Below are positions 3,404-20,000 of a DNA stretch of 20,000 bases, one piece after another (positions within the stretch are counted from its first letter, which is position 1; every line of letters begins with the position of its first letter). The notes beneath the pieces were generated by a model, which was not told where the DNA came from, made no database searches, and saw only the letters and a list, made by a program, of their open reading frames with translations. Made by a program: the position numbers and the translations under genes. Location of the stretch: the IMG/VR virus record IMGVR_UViG_3300042445_002545; one strand, written 5' to 3'. The DNA is from an uncultured virus (IMG/VR IMGVR_UViG_3300042445_002545). Lineage: Duplodnaviria; Heunggongvirae; Uroviricota; Caudoviricetes.

Positions 3404-3994
3404 TTATTTTATAAATCCATCTTTATATAAAGTATGTAAATAAATTGAGTGCTCTACGCACATTTCTTTAGCTTTCATAACGCCAATTTCAAAATCGTCT
3501 GTTGTATAATCAACAGCTCTACCAATCGACATGTGTAATCCAAAATAAGGTTTACCTAACCCCAATTCTGAACGTATCATTTGTAATTCTTCTCTATCCT
3601 CATGTGGAATATTAAACCACCAGTGATAATCACTATTTGGTTCAGAAGAATCAGTTTTTGGTGATAGGTCTATTATAACCTCAATTTTTTTACCATTCCA
3701 TTTAGTTTTTATTTCTTCCCATTTACCATTCATATCTGAAGCTCTATCATTTATGAATGTTATATGAGCACCTCTTAATGGTTTATGCAACTTTAAATTA
3801 TATCGCTTCTTAAGAAACCACATATAGTATTCGCAAACATCACCAGGTATAACAACCATAGCTACTTTCTTCCAAGAAGATTGTTTGCTGTGTTTTAAAG
3901 TCTTATCTTCTGGGTCAAAAACTATTTTACCAGTTAACTTAACAGTATTAGTTTGCCAATTTGAATTTTGGTAAGAATTCTCTAAGGAATGCAT
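3404..3994 (-). CDS. 2H phosphoesterase family protein (start uncertain: 3994 or 4030)
   Basis: Two Hx[T/S] motifs, GAHITFI and GLHMSIG, about 80 aa apart. Either start overlaps the upstream gene. Confidence 0.7.
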   Translation of the reverse strand: MHSLENSYQNSNWQTNTVKLTGKIVFDPEDKTLKHSKQSSWKKVAMVVIPGDVCEYYMWFLKKRYNLKLHKPLRGAHITFINDRASDMNGKWEEIKTKWNGKKIEVIIDLSPKTDSSEPNSDYHWWFNIPHEDREELQMIRSELGLGKPYFGLHMSIGRAVDYTTDDFEIGVMKAKEMCVEHSIYLHTLYKDGFIK

Positions 3995-4724
3995 TTTTTG
4001 GTCCACCGATTTTTTCAACCCATTTTTCATAATTAATTGCGTTTCTTTTTTCTAATTCTTCTATTTTTTTATCACTAGGTCTTGTTCTAGAATATGGTAG
4101 CACTTCTTTCTCAAAGTTTGGATAAGTTTCTTTATTAAACACTCTCTCATCAACCAAGAACACAACAGCTGTTAATGTGTCATTTAAATCTGGTTCATAA
4201 AATTCTGAAAATAACACACCGTTCTCATATAACGTATCTCTACTTTTTTGTAAGGAACCATACCATCTATCATCCTTTGAATTATTCGTTGTTCCACCAT
4301 TTAATATAATAAATGTCTTATCTTGTTTTCTCCATTTATTAAACCCAATCTGATTTGATTTTAACAATGCTTCACCAAAGTTAATACTACGACAAATATG
4401 ATTACCATCAAACATCAAATTATTATATTCTTGAACAGCATGTCCATATTGAATCGCTGATTGTATAGAACTAATATTATATGGTACTAAACCATACATT
4501 CTATATTCCAAATACGATTCACCTTTTCTAGGTTGTGAATTTGGTTTTACAGTGCATGATGTAATCATTTGTAAAAACTCAACCCTACCAACAAAATACA
4601 TTTCAAAAAAATGTCTTTCTTTTGACCCATAGAATTCTTCTGGCCACTCATTTAAATCAAGTGGTCTTATGTTATATTCAACACACCATTCATATGGTGT
4701 TTTAGTTTCTTCTACGTTTTTCAT
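3948..4724 (-). CDS. Protein with a C-terminal peptidyl-tRNA hydrolase II (Pth2)-like domain
   Basis: MYGLVPYNISSIQSAIQYGHA...KTFIILNGG...FYEPDLNDTLTAV resembles the QxxHA / FxEPD..TAV pattern of phage Pth2-like proteins. Confidence 0.65.
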   Translation of the reverse strand: MKNVEETKTPYEWCVEYNIRPLDLNEWPEEFYGSKERHFFEMYFVGRVEFLQMITSCTVKPNSQPRKGESYLEYRMYGLVPYNISSIQSAIQYGHAVQEYNNLMFDGNHICRSINFGEALLKSNQIGFNKWRKQDKTFIILNGGTTNNSKDDRWYGSLQKSRDTLYENGVLFSEFYEPDLNDTLTAVVFLVDERVFNKETYPNFEKEVLPYSRTRPSDKKIEELEKRNAINYEKWVEKIGGPKNAFLREFLPKFKLAN

Positions 4725-5274: not shown

Positions 5275-5479
5275 CTACAAATAAATTAGGGTTAGCTTCA
5301 ATCCAATCTATAATTGGTTTTTGAAACATCGCTCGAAAACCATGCATGTATAATACATCAGCAACAATGTGGAATTCTTCACCCATTGTGAATGTTAGTG
5401 GTTGTGGAACACCATTAAGTGTTACTTCCATAGCTTTCTTTAATCTGAAAACTTTATTCGAATATTTTACTCTGCTCAT
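5255..5479 (-). CDS. Hypothetical protein (74 aa)
   Basis: Overlaps both neighbours in operon fashion. Confidence 0.7.
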   Translation of the reverse strand: MSRVKYSNKVFRLKKAMEVTLNGVPQPLTFTMGEEFHIVADVLYMHGFRAMFQKPIIDWIEANPNLFVDDTRQF

Positions 5480-6534
5480 AATCCTACTAATTCATTTAAT
5501 TTTATTAAAAACATTTCTCTCGTTTTAGTTGAAATGTATTTATTTATTTCTTTGGGTTCAAGATTATTCTCAATCATGGTATCCATTTCTTCTTTGATAA
5601 CATCATTTACAACCCATCTAATTACGTCACCCATTTTCTTAACATCTAATGGTTCTTCATTAGGGAATACGTTTTCGATTGCTTGGTTAACACGACTTTC
5701 GGTAACCGAATATTCTACAAACTCTTTAATTGAGTTTAATTTTTCAACATCAACAGTTGCTAAGGTTTTAACTTTAGAGGAGCTATGTAATTCACCCTTC
5801 ACCTTGAACCTATGTACAACATTTTGAAATTCACAAGACCAAACGATACCTTCACCAATCCCTGAGAAGCCAAATGCTTTCGCTACAGGACATTCTTCCT
5901 CAACTGCAATAGTCAACTCGGATAATTGATTTTGAATCAACTGAGGCATGTTAAAATCGATATCAATTGAATACGTTTCATAATCATCGATATTGTAAAT
6001 TTTAACCTCTGGTGCTCTCAAGTATGTTGAATCAACCCAATAAGCTGGATTAGCTTTTAATTCTTCTTCAGTTTCAGTATGTGGTGTAATTTTAACACCA
6101 AATATGAAGAATGATTTAGGTAAGTTGGAAATACCAACACCTTTTTGAATATTACCACCAGCCCATTCACCATAAATACTAATAGTATTATTGTTTCTAT
6201 TAATATTTTCTTTTTCAGCAACATGTAACATTAAACCATAAAAAATATCCTTATTTGATTCCACAAAGAATGCAAATCCAGCGTTATCTTTTTCTGGTGT
6301 GATGATATTCTCACGAGATTGTGCCCACAAATCATCTTGACTATTATAAGAAACACCAGCATTAGTACCATGTAATTTTATAGTACCTTTAAAGGTTAAT
6401 ACTGGTTTAGGTAAATTTGGGTCATAAATCGCCTCACCATTTTCATCTAAACCAACAAAATTGTATCGTCTATTAACATTAGAAACAACAGTTCTAAATT
6501 GTTCAATAGACGGAAATTTAATCATTTTTTTCAT
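5476..6534 (-). CDS. RNA ligase, Rnl2-like
   Basis: Nucleotidyltransferase motifs I KLHGTN, III YGEWAG, IIIa FFIFGV, IV GEGIVW, V FKVK, plus helical C-terminal domain. Confidence 0.85.
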   Translation of the reverse strand: MKKMIKFPSIEQFRTVVSNVNRRYNFVGLDENGEAIYDPNLPKPVLTFKGTIKLHGTNAGVSYNSQDDLWAQSRENIITPEKDNAGFAFFVESNKDIFYGLMLHVAEKENINRNNNTISIYGEWAGGNIQKGVGISNLPKSFFIFGVKITPHTETEEELKANPAYWVDSTYLRAPEVKIYNIDDYETYSIDIDFNMPQLIQNQLSELTIAVEEECPVAKAFGFSGIGEGIVWSCEFQNVVHRFKVKGELHSSSKVKTLATVDVEKLNSIKEFVEYSVTESRVNQAIENVFPNEEPLDVKKMGDVIRWVVNDVIKEEMDTMIENNLEPKEINKYISTKTREMFLIKLNELVGL

Positions 6535-13623: not shown

Positions 13624-14100
13624 TTAATCGACAACAAACCAATCAGGTTTTTTTCTATTTTTCCAGTCAGCTAAGCTTTTTTTATGTGTCATATAGTATA
13701 ATCTATATGAATCAACGACTGAATCGATTTTACAATCATCTGGCATGGCCATAGCAAAGTTTGTTATATCACCATTGGTTGGTATATTTGGTGTGTTTAT
13801 CAGGCACCATTCAATAACATCCTGAGATTTGTGTCTTTTACCATAACGATATGTATATTCCTCACATAATGACATACCCAAATCACACAACCAAATATAA
13901 TTTTCAATACACTCCCTGGTCCAAATTGAACATGGGTGATTTTTATGTGATAACTTATACGGTATTAGATATTGGCTATCAGTTACATGATGAACACCGC
14001 ATAATAATTGAGCCGTTTCCAATATCATCTTAACTACATGTTTATTATTGTGCATTTGCGCAGCAACTTGTGGATTTTCATCTAGAACAAAAATATTCAT
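13624..14100 (-). CDS. Pyrimidine-dimer DNA glycosylase / endonuclease V-like protein
   Basis: MNIFVLD..HVVKMILETAQLL, HKNHPCSIW, EYTYRYGKRHKS, AMPD, YRLYY. Confidence 0.82.
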   Translation of the reverse strand: MNIFVLDENPQVAAQMHNNKHVVKMILETAQLLCGVHHVTDSQYLIPYKLSHKNHPCSIWTRECIENYIWLCDLGMSLCEEYTYRYGKRHKSQDVIEWCLINTPNIPTNGDITNFAMAMPDDCKIDSVVDSYRLYYMTHKKSLADWKNRKKPDWFVVD

Positions 14101-14102
14101 AT

Positions 14103-15038
14103 TTATTTTTTTATTTCAGTAACTTTTCCAATAACGTTGAATGGTTTTATTTTTCTCCATTCAGTAATATCATTACTCATAACAGCTTTACCACCATTTG
14201 GGTTAACAGCTATTGTGATGTGTGGTGTTGCATTTTTAGTTGGGTAACCCTCAACTTTAACAGCCATAGCCATATCAGATAACCCCAATTCCGTAACTTT
14301 AAGTGTTATATCTTTACCTAAATCTTCTTTGTTCGGTACTGGTTTACCAAATACAATTGTCATATGGTGTGTGATTATACTCCAACCATCTGGAATTTCA
14401 TTTTCAACCCTAGATAATAGTGAACTTCTAGAACCACCATCTAAAACAACAGCAGAATATAATACATCAGATTCTTTATACATATCTTTTGAACCCATAA
14501 CACTAGCAACACTTAATGGGCCTTGACCAGCGTGACTAGCTATCATTGATTCAATCTTTTCCAATGGAACACCATGAGTATTCCTATCAGCTAATTCTTG
14601 TGCTGATAACCCACCAGTACCAATATCAACAAATTGAATGTTTTTATCATCCAATCCCAAATCCAATGCTGATTTAACAGCAACTTTAGATTCGTTTTGT
14701 TTAATATTTGTATTATCTAAGATAACTGGTGATGCACCACTTTTTAATGAATTGGTAAGATTGGTAAGATTTGTTGAATGCGCTTTAGATAAAGGACTAA
14801 AGTCTTTAGTTGTAATCATCTTTTCGAAGAATTCCCTGTAATCACCTTGAGCTTCAATAACATCATCTGTTGAATGAATAATACCATCAGTACCAGCTAA
14901 TTCTTTTGCTTTTGTTGATTTACCAGAACCTGGAATTCCCCTCATTACAATAAGTACCTGGTCTGGTCTAGTAATAGTTACACCTAATGAATTTTTAAGC
15001 GTACCTTCTCTTAATATAGATTTAATTTTATCTTTCAT
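14103..15038 (-). CDS. Polynucleotide kinase (P-loop) fused to a 2H cyclic phosphodiesterase; RNA end-healing enzyme
   Basis: MRGIPGSGKST, STDD, ILDNTN, RNTHGVP (N4BP2/CNPase-like kinase), then HHMTI and PHITI 2H motifs. Confidence 0.87.
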   Translation of the reverse strand: MKDKIKSILREGTLKNSLGVTITRPDQVLIVMRGIPGSGKSTKAKELAGTDGIIHSTDDVIEAQGDYREFFEKMITTKDFSPLSKAHSTNLTNLTNSLKSGASPVILDNTNIKQNESKVAVKSALDLGLDDKNIQFVDIGTGGLSAQELADRNTHGVPLEKIESMIASHAGQGPLSVASVMGSKDMYKESDVLYSAVVLDGGSRSSLLSRVENEIPDGWSIITHHMTIVFGKPVPNKEDLGKDITLKVTELGLSDMAMAVKVEGYPTKNATPHITIAVNPNGGKAVMSNDITEWRKIKPFNVIGKVTEIKK

Positions 15039-15805: not shown

Positions 15806-16183
15806 TTATTTTTTAGGTTTTGTTTTTAACTTAATAAGTTTCTTTTTTGCTATTGGTTTCTTTTTAACTTTTTTCTTAATTTTAGCTTTTCTAGTGAAAC
15901 CACCAATACCACCAACCTTAAGATTCATGCATTTACCATTCTTAACTTTAGATAATGTAACAATAGCTCTTTCCCTCTCAGCTAATAATTCTCGACTTTC
16001 AACTATTTCTAAAATATCAACTCTATGTTTTTCTTTACCATATCTTTTTATTGAAAATTTTATTGCTTTACCAGAACCCATATAACCATCTTCCAGATTA
16101 TCGGTTGAATGCATACCAATATAATATTTGTTATTAACTAAACATGTTGTTTTGTATATGATATGATATTTTTTTTCATTCAA
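15806..16183 (-). CDS. GIY-YIG endonuclease (Seg-like) with Lys-rich tail
   Basis: IIYKTTCLVNNKYYIGMH, YMGSG, conserved Glu, CMNLKVGG; TTG start. Confidence 0.82.
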   Translation of the reverse strand: MNEKKYHIIYKTTCLVNNKYYIGMHSTDNLEDGYMGSGKAIKFSIKRYGKEKHRVDILEIVESRELLAERERAIVTLSKVKNGKCMNLKVGGIGGFTRKAKIKKKVKKKPIAKKKLIKLKTKPKK

Positions 16184-16192
16184 TGGTGTATT

Positions 16193-16837
16193 CTAATCGT
16201 TAAATAAGTTAGTTTTAATTATAAAATTTTCAGCTAATTCCATTATTTTATTTTGAATATCTTCTGGTAACTCATCAAATATTGAATCAATATCAATACT
16301 TTGACCATCTAATGTTTCAAATTTGTTTAATTGTTCATAATATCTAATGATATCACCAGAGGTTAGTTTGATTTTTTTAAACCTATCTTTGTTTGGTTGC
16401 ACTTGTGGTGGTTGTTGTTCTTTACCAGTAACATAAAGAATTTGGTTTGATGTAGCAAAATCCTTTTTTCTCATAATGGTTTTACTTATTAAATCTAACT
16501 CACCATTTTCCTTATCCCAACTTATAGTAAACGGGATATTAATATTTGTTGGGTTATTTTTAAATACAGCCTCAAAACCATCTTTATATTTAATTAACTG
16601 CTCTTTGTATTGTGAATAAATCTTTTTAAAGATATCCCTAAGTTCTTCAATTGTAATTTCCTTACCATTTCTAACATCATTCACCCTATCCAAAAAATGT
16701 TTTGTAAATTCAATATCAACACCAACACTTTTAAATAAATTATCTAATTCAATTTCTAATTTACCAAGCTGAGATGATGTGACGTAATCTTCTCTTAAAA
16801 GACTTTCCCTTAATAATTTTTTAATTAATGATTTCAT
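16193..16837 (-). CDS. Hypothetical phage protein with FTKHFLDRV motif (possible RelE/BECR-like domain)
   Basis: IEFTKHFLDRVND...INIPF...KTIMRK; fold assignment tentative. Confidence 0.7.
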   Translation of the reverse strand: MKSLIKKLLRESLLREDYVTSSQLGKLEIELDNLFKSVGVDIEFTKHFLDRVNDVRNGKEITIEELRDIFKKIYSQYKEQLIKYKDGFEAVFKNNPTNINIPFTISWDKENGELDLISKTIMRKKDFATSNQILYVTGKEQQPPQVQPNKDRFKKIKLTSGDIIRYYEQLNKFETLDGQSIDIDSIFDELPEDIQNKIMELAENFIIKTNLFND

Positions 16838-16887
16838 ATATTATAAATATCATTAAAAAATTAAAAATTTGACATATTAGTAAATAG

Positions 16888-16972
16888 CGGAGAGTGTGGG
16901 ATTCGAACCCACGGACCCCTTTCAGGGCCACGGTTTAGCAAACCGCTCCATTAACCACTCTGGCAACTCTCC
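16888..16972 (-). tRNA. trnS: tRNA-Ser(GCT)
   Basis: GGAGAGT/ACTCTCC acceptor, loop TTGCTAA, long variable arm, TTCGAAT, G73. Confidence 0.95.
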
Positions 16973-16977
16973 GATTG

Positions 16978-17050
16978 TACCCCTACAGGGATTCTAACCC
17001 CGATTAAGCCCTTAGAAGGGGCTGGTCCTATACAGTTGAACGATAGGGGC
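16978..17050 (-). tRNA. trnR: tRNA-Arg(TCT), non-canonical elbow
   Basis: GCCCCTA/TAGGGGT; AGCCC-CTTCTAA-GGGCT; D-loop AACTGTATA; T-loop TTAGAAT. Confidence 0.88.
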
Positions 17051-17061
17051 ATATTATGCAG

Positions 17062-17135
17062 TGACCACGGTAGGATTCGAACCTACAGCCTCCGCAGTCG
17101 TAATGCGGTGCGCTATCCAGTTGCGCCACGTAGCC
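17062..17135 (-). tRNA. trnR: tRNA-Arg(ACG)
   Basis: GGCTACG/CGTGGTC; CCGCA-TTACGAC-TGCGG; canonical D and T arms. Confidence 0.95.
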
Positions 17136-17165
17136 ATAATTGTAATATTTTTGATGTGATTAGTG

Positions 17166-17235
17166 TACCGCCTGTGAGGTTCGAACTCACCTTTCCATCC
17201 ATATGAGGGATAGTTGTACTCCACTGACTAGCGGC
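17166..17235 (-). tRNA. Atypical tRNA with CAT anticodon (Met or Ile2), degenerate D arm
   Basis: GCCGCT/GGCGGT acceptor (6 bp), TATCC-CTCATAT-GGATG, GTGAG-TTCGAAC-CTCAC; D stem poorly formed. Confidence 0.7.
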
Positions 17236-17237
17236 AT

Positions 17238-17348
17238 TTTGGTCGATGTCTAGAATCTTTAACCTCCTTTCTTGGCAAGGTCTCCATCATGGGTTCCGTT
17301 GATTGATTCATCTTTATAACCCCATACGGAACAAGCGGGGTAACCAAA
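17238..17348 (-). ncRNA. Candidate pseudoknotted structured RNA, family unknown
   Basis: Closing TTTGGTT/GACCAAA stem; crossing helices ACCCC/GGGGT and GTTCCGT/ACGGAAC; GC-richer than ordinary spacers. Confidence 0.45.
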
Positions 17349-17356
17349 TTATTTTG

Positions 17357-17430
17357 CTCTTCAGGAGGGATTCGAACCCCCAACCCATCGGTTAACAACC
17401 GATTGCTCTGACCATTATAGCTACCGAAGA
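17357..17430 (-). tRNA. trnN: tRNA-Asn(GTT)
   Basis: TCTTCGG/CTGAAGA, ATCGG-TTGTTAA-CCGAT, G73. Confidence 0.95.
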
Positions 17431-17435
17431 ATAAA

Positions 17436-17505
17436 AAAGTTTAGAGGCTTTGGGTTAGACACGCCTCAATATTACATGAGAGACCCCATAGATTGCATAA
17501 ACTTT
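17436..17505 (-). ncRNA. Candidate three-way-junction RNA in a tRNA spacer
   Basis: AAAGTTTA/TAAACTTT closing stem, GAGGC/GCCTC hairpin, possible TGGG/CCCA loop-loop pairing. Confidence 0.35.
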
Positions 17506-17506
17506 G

Positions 17507-17583
17507 TACAGAAGGTGAGATTCGAACTCACATGTGACCAACTACCCTTTCTACAAGATATAAGCTTGAGGGGATACATCTGC
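17507..17583 (-). tRNA. Topologically rearranged tRNA-like RNA, anticodon TAT (Ile, AUA reader)
   Basis: GCAGATG/CTTCTGT acceptor, perfect T arm, CAAG-CTTATAT-CTTG hairpin only 8 nt after the acceptor strand; D-loop-like AGTTGGTCA lies 3' of the anticodon arm. Confidence 0.65.
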
Positions 17584-17586
17584 ATT

Positions 17587-17637
17587 TTTATAAGTGGCCA
17601 AAACTATGTTTTTTAGTGAGTTTTGGCACCTTATAAA
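17587..17637. repeat. Inverted repeat / spacer hairpin
   Basis: TTTATAAG..GCCAAAACT pairs with AGTTTTGGC..CTTATAAA. Confidence 0.7.
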
Positions 17638-17640
17638 TTG

Positions 17641-17714
17641 TAGGAAACACGGGACTCGAACCCATAACCTCTTCGGTATCAGCGAAGTGCTCTAACCAGT
17701 TGAGCTAGCTTCCT
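17641..17714 (-). tRNA. trnI: tRNA-Ile(GAT)
   Basis: AGGAAGC/GTTTCCT, CTTCG-CTGATAC-CGAAG, A73. Confidence 0.95.
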
Positions 17715-17733
17715 ATTGTGAGTGGAAGCCATA

Positions 17734-17928
17734 TTACTTCCACTTTGTTTTTCTGTTGTGTTTCCACGTTTTAAATTCTCTCCATTTATGATTTGGTAGA
17801 TTACGGTGGCTCCAATTCCACCCATAATCCCATATGTTATAACCATAAATGTTCATCCATCGAATACAATTGTATTCTTTAGAAGTTTTTGCTTTGTTCA
17901 GTTTTGCTCTGTTAATTTTTTTACTCAT
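17734..17928 (-). CDS. Small basic Trp-rich protein (64 aa) inside the tRNA array
   Basis: MSKKINRAK...WKHNRKTKWK; ATG 17928 preferred because the upstream extension runs through a hairpin. Confidence 0.65.
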   Translation of the reverse strand: MSKKINRAKLNKAKTSKEYNCIRWMNIYGYNIWDYGWNWSHRNLPNHKWREFKTWKHNRKTKWK

Positions 17929-17998
17929 AATGTTGTGAGTCTGTGAATAGCAGACCTTACAACATATCAAATACCTTTTTCATAAATTTTATTTTTAG

Positions 17999-18085
17999 AG
18001 GAGAAGGAGAGATTCGAACTCTCGGAACCCTTTCAGGTCCACTGGTTTTCAAGACCAGCACCATAAACCACTCGGACACTTCTCC
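17999..18085 (-). tRNA. trnS: tRNA-Ser(TGA)
   Basis: GGAGAAG/CTTCTCC, CTGGT-CTTGAAA-ACCAG, long variable arm; discriminator is T. Confidence 0.95.
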
Positions 18086-18096
18086 ATTTTTAAATA

Positions 18097-18190
18097 ATAA
18101 GGCTACAGCCTTATAATGTTATAATATAAGGCTACAGCCTTATAACCTTATAACGTTATAATATAACCTTATAACCTTATAACGTTATAT
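18097..18190. repeat. Degenerate tandem repeat of 8-mers (CCTTATAA, CGTTATAA, GGCTACAG)
   Basis: ATAAGGCTACAGCCTTATAA at 18097 and 18126; CCTTATAACCTTATAACGTTATA at 18138 and 18167 (29-nt offsets). Confidence 0.85.
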
Positions 18191-18193
18191 TAG

Positions 18194-18264
18194 CACGAGT
18201 GGAGAGGTTCGAACTCCCTACGGCAAGGTTTTGGAGGCCCGCCCGCCCCTAGGCTGTCACTCGT
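18194..18264 (-). tRNA. trnW: Atypical tRNA-Trp(CCA) with reduced D arm
   Basis: ACGAGTG/CACTCGT, loop CTCCAAA, GGGAG-TTCGAAC-CTCTC, G73; D arm only GCC-TAGG-GGC; mismatched anticodon stem. Confidence 0.72.
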
Positions 18265-18277
18265 GTGTTTTACTTAC

Positions 18278-18293
18278 CAATATGTCAAAGAAC
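18278..18293 (-). promoter_or_regulatory. boxA-like antitermination element GTTCTTTGACATATTG
   Basis: Resembles rrn boxA (TGCTCTTTAACA) and the form I recall from Bacteroidota rrn spacers; on the transcribed strand near the 5' end of the array. Confidence 0.6.
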
Positions 18294-18300
18294 CTTTGTT

Positions 18301-18384
18301 GGTGTCTGACGGGAATTGAACCCGCATGTCGTAAGACCCCTGTTTCACAGACAGGTGTGGCAAACTAATATCCACCTCAGACAC
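18301..18384 (-). tRNA. trnH: tRNA-His(GTG) with long variable arm
   Basis: GTGTCTG/CAGACAC plus C73; CCTGT-CTGTGAA-ACAGG; 13-nt variable region containing GTC-TTAC-GAC. Confidence 0.85.
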
Positions 18385-18386
18385 AG

Positions 18387-18460
18387 CTCCCCCACCTGGA
18401 CTCGAACCAGGGACCCACGCATTAACAGTGCGTTGCTCTAACCAACTGAGCTACAGGGGA
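18387..18460 (-). tRNA. trnN: tRNA-Asn(GTT)
   Basis: TCCCCTG/TGGGGGA, ACGCA-CTGTTAA-TGCGT, canonical arms, G73. Confidence 0.96.
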
Positions 18461-18630
18461 ATGTTAATTGTGACAAATATTGTTACTTTGCCACCCTTCT
18501 TTTCAAATTTAAGATTACCGTTGTAACCCATTTCTTTTGCTTTCGCATTGTATTCGTCATAAATCTTATCGAAGTTCTTTTGGAAGTCTGAGACTTTTAC
18601 AGTTCCTAATGTTCTTACTAATTTTTCCAT
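18451..18630 (-). CDS. Hypothetical protein (59 aa), first gene after the attenuator
   Basis: ATG at 18630 with A-rich upstream (MEKLVRTLG...); stop codon falls 10 nt inside tRNA-Asn. Confidence 0.65.
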   Translation of the reverse strand: MEKLVRTLGTVKVSDFQKNFDKIYDEYNAKAKEMGYNGNLKFEKKGGKVTIFVTINIPL

Positions 18631-18644
18631 AATTTTTATGACAT

Positions 18645-18677
18645 AAAAAAACCCAACTCTATTTCTAGGTCGGGTTT
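18645..18677 (-). terminator. Attenuator terminator (3:4 hairpin)
   Basis: AAACCCGAC-CTAGAAATAGA-GTTGGG-TTTTTTT between the promoter and the tRNA array. Confidence 0.85.
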
Positions 18678-18700
18678 CTGATTTTATTAAATTCTTATTT

Positions 18701-18799
18701 TTAGAACTCAATGATATCGCTGAACATACCAGACCTAGTTTGTAGACTATTACGTCTCCAATTACTAATCGACATTCTATGTATGTTATTTGTTATCAT
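18701..18799 (-). CDS. Putative attenuator leader peptide MITNNIHRMSISNWRRNSLQTRSGMFSDIIEF (32 aa)
   Basis: ATG after A-rich AAATAAAAAAAACACA; codons 4-18 match the array anticodons; overlaps the alternative hairpins. Confidence 0.8.
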   Translation of the reverse strand: MITNNIHRMSISNWRRNSLQTRSGMFSDIIEF

Positions 18800-18835
18800 T
18801 GTGTTTTTTTTATTTGTGTATTAATTAAATATATG

Positions 18836-18867
18836 CAAATATACTAAAAGTTTTTTTATTTGTCAAG
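18836..18867 (-). promoter_or_regulatory. Bacteroidota sigmaA-type promoter of the leader/tRNA operon
   Basis: CTTG(18867-18864)-N20-TATATTTG(18843-18836). Confidence 0.78.
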
Positions 18868-18888
18868 TTTTTTTAAAAATATTTTTAT

Positions 18889-19665
18889 TTACCAAGTTTT
18901 ATACATTGTTAATTCGTACCTACCACTAGGCATTCTGTAGATTGATACACGTATATATCTATTAGCTTCTTTACCTCTTTTATCCAGGATTGGTTCTCCA
19001 TTCTGTAATAATGGGATATTTGCTGACTTCTCAGTTTCATATGATATTCCACCAGTACCAAAATTAGTCCAAATTGTCTGCTCATCAACTTCAAACCCTA
19101 ATTGCGCTGCTTTTTGTCTAACAGCATCCAATACTTCACTTAAAGTTTCAAAGTATGTATCATTACCATCTTCATGTAAACTACTCTGAGCACCCTTAAC
19201 AATAGAATCAGCAAAACTTGGTTTACTAAATTGACTTTCTACATTATCTTCATCGATACCCATTTCACCCATTCTAATACCCCTTGGTTGAGATTCGTCA
19301 TCTTCAGTTGGGTTAGTAATTGCCTTTACTGAGAATAAATAAATATCACTTAAACGGAAATTTTCATTAAATCGGTCAGCAGCTTTTGCTTCAGCTTCTT
19401 CTTCGTTATTAGCTGTTATTTCATAAACCCAACGGTGTTTGTAACCACCATCTTTTTCAGCTTCTTTACCTATAACTTCAACCTTATAAGTGTTTTCACT
19501 ATTTAATTCTTCTTGGTCAATTTCTGGGTTAATACCGTATTCTTGTTTTCTACTTTCTAAGTCCCAATCTTCATTTTCATTAATTAAACCCTTAGATTGT
19601 AGGTATCTTTGTTCAGCTAATAAATTAGCTTTTCTAATATTGTCTTTTTTATCAAATCTTCTCAT
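18889..19665 (-). CDS. Acidic hypothetical phage protein (258 aa)
   Basis: Long ORF with basic N-terminus ending GLINE and C-terminal domain with YRMPSGRYEL. Confidence 0.8.
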   Translation of the reverse strand: MRRFDKKDNIRKANLLAEQRYLQSKGLINENEDWDLESRKQEYGINPEIDQEELNSENTYKVEVIGKEAEKDGGYKHRWVYEITANNEEEAEAKAADRFNENFRLSDIYLFSVKAITNPTEDDESQPRGIRMGEMGIDEDNVESQFSKPSFADSIVKGAQSSLHEDGNDTYFETLSEVLDAVRQKAAQLGFEVDEQTIWTNFGTGGISYETEKSANIPLLQNGEPILDKRGKEANRYIRVSIYRMPSGRYELTMYKTW

Positions 19666-20000
19666 TACAATAAGTTTCTAAACATTTCGTCAATTTTCCA
19701 TTTAGGCATATCTAAATCCATGCTGAATAAAATATTTCTTATTTTCTCTTCTTCTTCTCTTTGTTCGTTAACATAACCTAGAGCAAATGAATATGTATCA
19801 TTGTCATCTTCACCTTTAGCTTTATTAGCAATATCGTTCCAATTCTTAGTAACTTTCATTTCATGCTCTAACGCTTTTGCAACAACGTCTCTAACGTTAT
19901 TAAAGTTAACTGGAACATTTTTAACATTAGGTACAATTGCTTTAGCATTTTTTTCATAAAGATATGTGTATATTTTTGACATATGACCTAATTCTTCATC
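19665..20000 (-). CDS. ftnA: Ferritin (non-heme type), 5' part outside the window
   Basis: Frame open to the window edge: DEELGH, ALEHEMKVT, DNDTYSF, YVNEQREEE ferroxidase motifs. Confidence 0.85.
   Translation of the reverse strand, partial: DEELGHMSKIYTYLYEKNAKAIVPNVKNVPVNFNNVRDVVAKALEHEMKVTKNWNDIANKAKGEDDNDTYSFALGYVNEQREEEEKIRNILFSMDLDMPKWKIDEMFRNLL

Follow-up and report, generated by a model that had tools for sequence, protein, structure and literature searches.

The DNA analysed here, in what follows the window, is a stretch of 20,000 nucleotides (nt) from an uncultured Caudoviricetes virus (IMG/VR record IMGVR_UViG_3300042445_002545). It is part of a 25,189-bp virus contig with 31.7% G+C, and its last 338 bases (19663-20000) lie outside that contig. 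On the minus strand, which carries all features described below, a promoter, a short open reading frame (ORF), an intrinsic terminator, an ORF of 59 amino acids (aa) and a block of tRNA genes follow one another in this order, and our subject is the leader RNA ahead of the tRNA genes, a likely attenuator of their transcription. The promoter (18838-18866; TTGACA 18866-18861, 17 nt, TATATT 18843-18838) agrees with the consensus at 11 of 12 positions, ranks first among the 15 sites between 16000 and 20000, and is also kept in relatives. With transcription assumed to start near 18831, an A-rich 5' untranslated region (UTR; 18800-18831) precedes the leader ORF (18701-18799; MITNNIHRMSISNWRRNSLQTRSGMFSDIIEF), which has 32 codons followed by TAA. 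The terminator (18645-18677) comes next, and the first gene past it is the 59-aa ORF (18451-18630), whose relatives are 86-100% identical, which has no Pfam match and belongs to no known family, and whose 3' end overlaps tRNA-Asn. The tRNA array (16887-18460) comprises Asn GTT, His GTG, Ser TGA, Ile GAT, Asn GTT, Met CAT, Arg ACG, Arg TCT and Ser GCT, that is, nine genes by ARAGORN, eight of which also score above the Rfam cut-off.

An earlier note, made from the letters of the window, had described in this leader a complete set of alternative hairpins of the 1:2, 2:3 and 3:4 type. The set is real, and every pair that the note proposed is found on the minus strand. Segment 1 (18764-18801) consists of CAAUGAUA (18801-18794), AACAUAC (18787-18781) and UAGU (18767-18764), while segment 2 (18709-18739) holds ACUA (18739-18736), CUAGGUCUGGU (18738-18728), which faces segment 3, GUAUGUU (18729-18723), which faces segment 1, and UAUCAUUG (18716-18709). 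The core of the 1:2 pairing, AACAUAC with GUAUGUU, is a perfect helix of 7 bp, continued by UAGU with ACUA and, further in, by UUG-G-AGAC (18761-18754) with GUCU-A-CAA (18747-18740) around the loop GUAAUA. Beyond the helices already listed by the note, CAAUGAUA pairs with UAUCAUUG in an outer helix that covers the AUG. The inner hairpin UUGGAGAC-GUAAUA-GUCUACAA (18740-18761; codons 14-20) recurs in the 1:2 fold and in the 2:3 fold and is compatible with either. For the 2:3 pairing, CUAGGUC (18738-18732) meets GACCUAG (18671-18665) in 7 bp and GGU (18730-18728) meets ACC (18675-18673) across a U/C mismatch, all 10 pairs being confirmed base by base. Segment 3 (ACCCGACCUAG, 18665-18675) is made of the 5' arm of the terminator plus the first base of its loop, and the facing part of segment 2 corresponds to ORF nt 62-72, hence to codons 21-24, just where the note had placed it. 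Between segments 2 and 3, a spacer hairpin (AGUUCU-AAAAAUA-AGAAUU, 18690-18708) holds the stop codon and has 10 bp when enclosed in the 2:3 loop. Finally, the CCCGAC/GUUGGG stem given for 3:4 is the core of a 12-pair hairpin (18677-18649; GAAA loop, -13.9 kcal/mol), followed by U7 at 18651-18645. A simple consensus scan does not list this hairpin because of its bulge (read without the bulge, the loop would be of about 12 nt, outside the 3-8 rule), but folding does recover it.

Both alternative duplexes stand out from their surroundings. The 2:3 duplex (-15.9 kcal/mol) is equalled or bettered by 3 of 3917 stretches of 24 nt on the same strand of the window, and the 1:2 duplex (-16.7 kcal/mol) by 5 of 3915 stretches of 32 nt. 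The unconstrained minimum free energy (MFE) structure of 18832-18640 combines 1:2, 3:4 and the outer helix and reaches -40.8 kcal/mol, whereas shuffled sequences average -25.8 (z = -4.15) and none of 200 attains a value as low.

The coding content of the leader points to the array behind it. In codons 4-18 (18746-18790; AAT AAC ATA CAT AGA ATG TCG ATT AGT AAT TGG AGA CGT AAT AGT), 14 of the 15 are read by tRNAs of the array, ATA being counted with the CAT tRNA. Array-read codons make up 28.2% of the long ORFs of the contig, from which a binomial P of 2.2e-7 follows. All eight anticodons of the array are represented, a coverage that by itself occurs in 5.1e-5 of 2 million draws. Among 19,758 stop-free runs of 15 codons in the six frames of the contig, this is the single best, and the next independent run reaches 12. 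The lone mismatch, TGG, is a codon for tRNA-Trp CCA, a gene that relatives do have in their arrays. The codon set of the leader equals the set of isoacceptors encoded downstream, down to the two Arg and the two Ser anticodon families. When 24 related loci with an array were compared, the match ranged from 5 to 15 of 15 and was complete in 6, the DNA examined ending at about 3.5 kb, so that the arrays counted are often incomplete. At 19 of the 24, every tRNA that was called has its codon in the sensor. Where sensing codons vary between relatives (AAT/ATT/ATA, AGA/ATG/ATA, ATG/ATT/ATA, AGT/AGC/TCG/AAT and CGT/CGC), all the variants are still array-read.

Homologous leaders were collected in two ways. 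Searches guided by the proteins of the two flanking ORFs gave 11 loci, all of which carry the leader, and a pattern built from the conserved core of the leader retrieved 36 stretches from IMG/VR, representing 29 distinct variants of which 28 are complete, many on phage contigs of 200-370 kb. The ORF is open in all 28 (30-33 codons), its indels keep the frame, and start, frame and stop are conserved, the stop lying at a constant distance. The consensus peptide reads M-R-T-I-N-I-H-M-I-S-I-S-N-W-R-R-N-S and is followed by a variable part. Codons 1-18 are almost invariant in nucleotides, synonymous sites included, and the 3' part diverges into three C-terminal peptide classes (DIIEF/W, GGTEV and NFFDDF) with synonymous variation inside each class. 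Every one of the 28 leaders also has a terminator hairpin of 10-13 pairs (-12.0 to -17.9 kcal/mol) with a U run behind it. As a separate observation, one contig (L010) has two copies of this leader type (3745-4031 and 5289-5590), about 1.56 kb apart and of different 2:3 classes; each precedes part of the array, and a tRNA-His lies between the two.

Despite the divergence of its sequence, the 2:3 pairing persists. At least five complementary classes occur, namely CUAGGUC/GACCUAG (the window), GGUCAAGG/CCUUGACC, GUCGGGU/ACCCGAC, UGAGUC/GACUCA and GAGACG/CGUCUC, as well as the bulged variants CAGGU/ACCUG and GCUA...CGGGU/ACCCG...UAGC. RNAalifold on a MAFFT alignment was uninformative (9 pairs only, 5 of them in the terminator), since MAFFT loses the register of the variable 3' part. 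The pairs were therefore counted by a script that set the register by UAUG, an invariant sequence at the 3' end of segment 2. Among 26 distinct segment 2/segment 3 rows with 9 positions each, 82.9% of the pairs are standard, a percentage inflated by the choice of the best register for each row, and double changes, which are not so inflated, occur at 6 of the 9 positions (43 cells). Controls in which the partner was slid by 1-3 nt gave 23-50% standard pairs and 1-20 double-change cells. In addition, among 18 class representatives, cognate 2:3 duplexes average -14.0 kcal/mol and non-cognate ones -9.5, and none of 100,000 permutations reached the cognate mean. Covariation of this kind, which answers the note's demand for a conserved 2:3 pairing, argues that the antiterminator is under selection. 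The 1:2 helix, of the AACAUAC/GUAUGUU type, is found in the MFE structure of all 18 representatives, often extended by UUAACAUAC/GUAUGUUAA or CAAUUA/UAAUUG, and is thus conserved, but it is less well supported than 2:3.

We next consider the order in which these helices would form. In a growing transcript, 1:2 is the MFE structure from the 3' end 18723 on, 2:3 for 3' ends between 18665 and 18654, and 1:2 together with 3:4 from 18653 on. At full length, a forced 2:3 costs 4 kcal/mol (-36.8 against -40.8 for the terminator state). By these folding models, the 2:3 state is energetically competitive with the terminator state, as the note had required of it. Little energy separates the 1:2 state from the 2:3 state, which suggests a bistable design, and the findpath barriers from 1:2 to 2:3 are of 8.4-17.1 kcal/mol in the 18 representatives and of 16.7 in the window. 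By the usual rate arguments, a preformed 1:2 hairpin would stay shut for the fraction of a second that passes until segment 4 has been synthesised.

The position of the leading ribosome was modelled on transcripts ending before segment 4, with an assumed footprint of 27 nt that covers 12 nt before and 14 nt after the first base of the P site, in keeping with toeprint and helicase data. Masking at equilibrium in the full-length RNA was set aside as a test, since the decision of an attenuator falls earlier than the synthesis of segment 4. In the window, the modelled probability of 2:3 stays at about 0.7-0.78 as long as the A site is at one of codons 2-17, is 0.67 for codon 18 and does not exceed 0.1 for codons 19-29. 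A step of this kind, at codons 18-20, is common to all 28 leaders, 2:3 being allowed at 2-17 and lost at about 19/20-28. Two proposals of the note thereby agree with the models: a stall at codons 4-18 leaves segment 2 free, and the codon match ends at about codon 18, where a stalled ribosome begins to cover segment 2.

Taken together, anatomy, pairings, codon content and geometry make it likely, in our view, that the leader is a ribosome-mediated (leader-peptide) transcription attenuator that gates the phage tRNA array. The phage, a large freshwater one, probably makes the tRNAs of the array when ribosomes read those codons slowly; translation of the leader ORF, activity of the terminator, and the timing and direction of the response are what we infer from the arrangement. 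In such a mechanism, transcription would begin at the promoter 18866-18838, and the first ribosome would translate the 32-codon leader as RNA polymerase advances. Slow reading of codons 4-18, when the matching charged tRNAs are scarce, would keep the ribosome on segment 1, so that segment 2 (18738-18728) would be free to pair with segment 3 (18675-18665) as the latter emerges. With the 5' arm of the terminator thus taken, the polymerase would continue into the 59-aa ORF and the array. Fast reading, on the other hand, would bring the ribosome over segment 2 (A site at codons 19-29), 1:2 would re-pair behind it, segment 3 would then be available to segment 4, and transcription would stop at U7. 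As phage tRNAs accumulate, the leader would be read faster and the array would shut itself down, amounting to a negative feedback on tRNA supply.

Several results weigh against this reading. Some concern the switch itself. When segment 4 is present, the terminator stays probable in most of the 28 rows under any ribosome mask, and in the window at full length its probability drops only to about 0.5-0.6 with the ribosome at codons 8-11; when segment 4 is absent, the probability of 2:3 in the window is 0.78 even without a ribosome. Because 2:3 thus prevails over 1:2 in ribosome-free transcripts that stop short of segment 4, the only role left to 1:2 is that of a kinetic trap. Equilibrium folding yields no switch, so that the model rests on kinetics, which are bounded only by a path heuristic, and on these calculations the switch must be kinetic, not thermodynamic. 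The three-hairpin attenuator put forward by the note is supported, with the correction that the switch is not thermodynamic, given that 3:4 wins at full length in most rows whatever is masked. For its protector 1:2 the results are mixed: the helix is there in the MFE structures, but it is not dominant at equilibrium, its z-scores against shuffles, though all negative, range from -0.2 to -4.1 in the 18 representatives (-2.39 in the window, where 3 of 300 shuffles are as good), and covariation cannot test it because segment 1 is nearly invariant. A further difficulty is that with the A site at codons 30-33 the probability of 2:3 climbs back to 0.4-0.6, a ribosome at the stop codon leaving segment 2 uncovered. 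Termination would then need either the refolding of 1:2 behind the ribosome or steric exclusion across the spacer hairpin (18708-18690) with the ribosome bound to it.

Other points against the attenuator concern sampling and the codon match. The collecting pattern fixes most of codons 5-16, an ascertainment effect, and more divergent leaders consequently fall outside the sample. Some relatives in the 24-locus comparison have arrays without tRNAs for certain sensing codons, and two loci (L018 and L024) have tRNAs for Arg CCT, Ser GGA and Thr TGT without a codon at positions 4-18. The ATA codon requires a CAT tRNA of the lysidine type, and the CAT tRNA may be either Met or lysidine-Ile; a search of Escherichia coli genomes meant to type it gave no match. 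With respect to public sequence data, 16 DNA runs, mostly from lake water, contain at least half of the sampled words. From four runs of RNA, or possibly of RNA, came only contigs that are 90-95% alike over the 59-aa ORF and the tRNAs and do not cover the leader ORF, so that they speak neither for nor against its transcription; a single contig extends into the terminator region, and the run behind it is probably DNA.

The other tRNA arrays of related phages provide an additional comparison. Three complete relatives, of 287,855, 368,549 and 362,018 bp, have 22, 65 and 45 tRNA matches, respectively, in several arrays. From these, 12 regions were taken, and the 7 array loci among them were scanned for short ORFs, the 5 regions with one or two tRNAs being left out. 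At 6 of the 7 loci we found leaders written in the amino acids of their own array, 7 leaders in total: T/Y/Q/P/K/G-rich ones ahead of Pro-Gln-Tyr-Thr-Gly-Lys arrays in three phages, F/D/A/E-rich ones ahead of Phe-Glu-Asp-Ala arrays in two, and L/V/C-rich ones ahead of Cys-Val-Leu arrays in two. The Met/Pro/Cys cluster of locus L050 has no array-matched short ORF, the best scoring 4 of 12. All 7 leaders have a hairpin with a U tract before the first tRNA, and in shortened transcripts the 5' arm of the terminator pairs with the ORF region when the ribosome is early and much less when it is late. For one of them, in the relative G001, the promoter and the 5' UTR are nearly verbatim those of the window. 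Array-matched leaders at other arrays are hard to explain except by a decoding sensor. Two further observations were made at these loci. The leaders of the other arrays are not followed by an ORF of the 59-aa type, the tRNAs lying directly 3' of the terminator. Moreover, L050 and L059 (in G002 and G003) include tRNA genes with the anticodon CTA, amber-suppressor-like and labelled Pyl by ARAGORN, and in these phages TAG may become a sense codon at late stages of infection.

The same comparison bears on a different kind of attenuator, one that senses general translation capacity or coupling (host shut-off, ribosome availability) and not particular tRNAs, with a codon set owed to shared origin or codon bias. 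The hairpin logic would indeed answer any slowing of the leading ribosome, and the leader is more conserved than the content of the array. However, such a sensor has no need of four leader types in the same phages, each with the amino acids of its own array, and the variable codons do remain within the set read by the array. We therefore hold this scenario to be quite unlikely.

Alternatively, the locus might be nothing more than a small gene that makes the 32-aa peptide and ends at a terminator of its own, with the array driven from elsewhere. A conserved ORF whose C-terminal peptide classes show synonymous variation within each class would fit a functional product, and the 59-aa ORF contains, at 18506-18479, a weak promoter-like site (9 of 12), which also counts against the attenuator and could serve the tRNA genes. 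Nevertheless, a small gene leaves unexplained the joint change of segment 2 and the terminator 5' arm, the near-invariance of codons 1-18 at synonymous sites, and a peptide composition equal to the downstream tRNA set here and at 7 other leaders, and the next ATG, that of the 59-aa ORF, follows the U tract after no more than about 15 nt. This explanation appears very improbable to us, and we give no more credit to a non-coding structured RNA (a small RNA or processing signal) in which the ORF is incidental. The strong structure, the AUG held within a helix of the MFE fold and the lack of a Shine-Dalgarno sequence before the leader ORF would all suit the latter. Yet no Shine-Dalgarno-like run precedes any of the 23 long ORFs of the window either, so that its lack is general in this phage and the leader needs none. 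Initiation without Shine-Dalgarno pairing is how Bacteroidota translate. Neither the open, frame-keeping ORF of all 28 leaders, with its stop at a constant distance, nor the top-ranking codon match is expected of a non-coding RNA. Furthermore, Rfam at gathering scores finds no leader family in the whole window, and the leader region 18620-18880, searched down to E = 10, matches none, the best score being 22.8 bits against a cut-off of 38, for a small-RNA model lying on the terminator. The least probable scenario of all, to which we attach hardly any weight, is a T-box-like one in which uncharged tRNAs pair directly with codon-like triplets and stabilise the antiterminator without translation, for although the leader has cognate triplets for all array tRNAs and T-box leaders also choose between terminator and antiterminator, no T-box (Stem I with its specifier loop, conserved antiterminator bulge) or other Rfam family is matched at gathering level or at E <= 10, start codon, frame and stop are all conserved, and specifier loops are not known to consist of fifteen consecutive in-frame triplets.

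The leader-peptide attenuator proposed here invites comparison with known systems. The leader of the E. coli trp operon, trpL, is the model of the 1:2, 2:3 and 3:4 alternative and relies on two Trp codons. Both leaders have a short ORF with the regulatory codons in segment 1, and the mutually exclusive anti-antiterminator, antiterminator and intrinsic terminator helices of trpL, among which the position of the leading ribosome decides, have predicted counterparts in the phage leader. Unlike trpL, which controls a biosynthetic operon, the phage leader stands before tRNA genes, and in place of two Trp codons it has 15 sensing codons for 7 amino acids and 9 tRNA species. With its stop codon placed some 20 nt past segment 2, a terminating ribosome leaves segment 2 uncovered, and the phage leader has no Shine-Dalgarno sequence, a phage setting and no Rfam leader family, the Trp, His, Leu and Thr operon leader families being unmatched. 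The ilvGMEDA leader, with Ile, Leu and Val codons, and the thr leader, with Thr and Ile codons, sense the amino-acid supply of the pathway that they control. In them, codons of several amino acids are mixed in one peptide and a shortage of any of them leads to readthrough, as it would in the phage leader, whereas the codon set of the phage leader is the isoacceptor set encoded downstream. Attenuators that set a component of translation by the state of tRNA are known as well: pheM responds to a single amino acid and governs a synthetase (pheST), and the T-box RNAs of aminoacyl-tRNA synthetase genes bind uncharged tRNA without a ribosome. Neither is known to control tRNA genes, however, and the phage leader has no T-box signature. 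In the literature as covered through titles and the openings of abstracts, no description came to light of tRNA genes or phage tRNA arrays being controlled by leader-peptide attenuation. Leader-like sequences upstream of pheU or pheV in E. coli may have been a subject of older papers.

Other features of the locus deserve mention. Over the -10 element of the promoter, bases 18843-18836 also spell TATATTTG, and exact TATATTTG is strand-biased in its occurrence, with 10 copies on the gene strand and 1 on the opposite strand. The motif TANNTTTG shows no enrichment (38 occurrences for 35 expected), the bias being confined to exact TATATTTG. We take TAnnTTTG to be the -7 element of Bacteroidota promoters. 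Within the array, a tRNA-like gene at 18194-18264 remains below threshold (RF00005, 17.8 bits, E 0.2, cut-off 29). Its anticodon loop, CUCCAAA, might correspond to Trp CCA, it is syntenic with the tRNA-Trp CCA of relatives, and perhaps it is a Trp tRNA that has diverged or is decaying. The sequence TTGACATATTGG ahead of it was considered as a motif and rejected, as it occurs in a single exact copy without enrichment. Between this gene and tRNA-Ser TGA, AT-rich palindromic repeats forming hairpins of the TATAAGGCTGTAGCCTTATA type (18095-18190, minus strand) are found, and they are also present in L002. Downstream of the array lie, on the minus strand, a GIY-YIG nuclease-like ORF (15806-16183; E 2.5e-4, slightly under the Pfam cut-off), which is its immediate neighbour, an ORF of 311 aa (14103-15038) and a pyrimidine-dimer glycosylase-like ORF (13624-14100; E 1.6e-4, again slightly under the cut-off). 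In the 311-aa ORF, a kinase domain of the AAA_33 family (E 1.1e-9) is accompanied by a weak match to the fungal tRNA-ligase phosphodiesterase (CPD) domain (E 7.6e-4, below cut-off); from its domains it is a possible candidate for a kinase/CPD-like RNA or tRNA repair enzyme. A blastn search of 16800-19700 against the phage collection returned tRNA-sized matches only, with no record covering 80% of the query.

Why phages carry tRNA genes, and how the expression of these is timed, is an open question. If the attenuator is what we propose, leader-peptide attenuation would gain tRNA genes as a target class and, as the sensed quantity, the supply of the product itself. The composition of a leader would predict the tRNAs of one transcription unit and could thus be used as an annotation marker, and such leaders would offer a natural template for codon-specific translation sensors. 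More tentatively, and as a possibility that we do not yet favour, each tRNA block of freshwater jumbo phages might be an autonomous feedback circuit whose leader reports the decoding speed of its own codons. The phage could in this way detect the loss of particular host tRNAs, through shut-off, starvation or anticodon-nuclease defences, and replace only the missing ones, with the kinase/CPD-like repair candidate beside the array as part of the context, and the terminated leader RNA or the peptide could also act in trans. In the attenuator proposed here, the phage would measure decoding speed and dose its own tRNAs by feedback, block by block.

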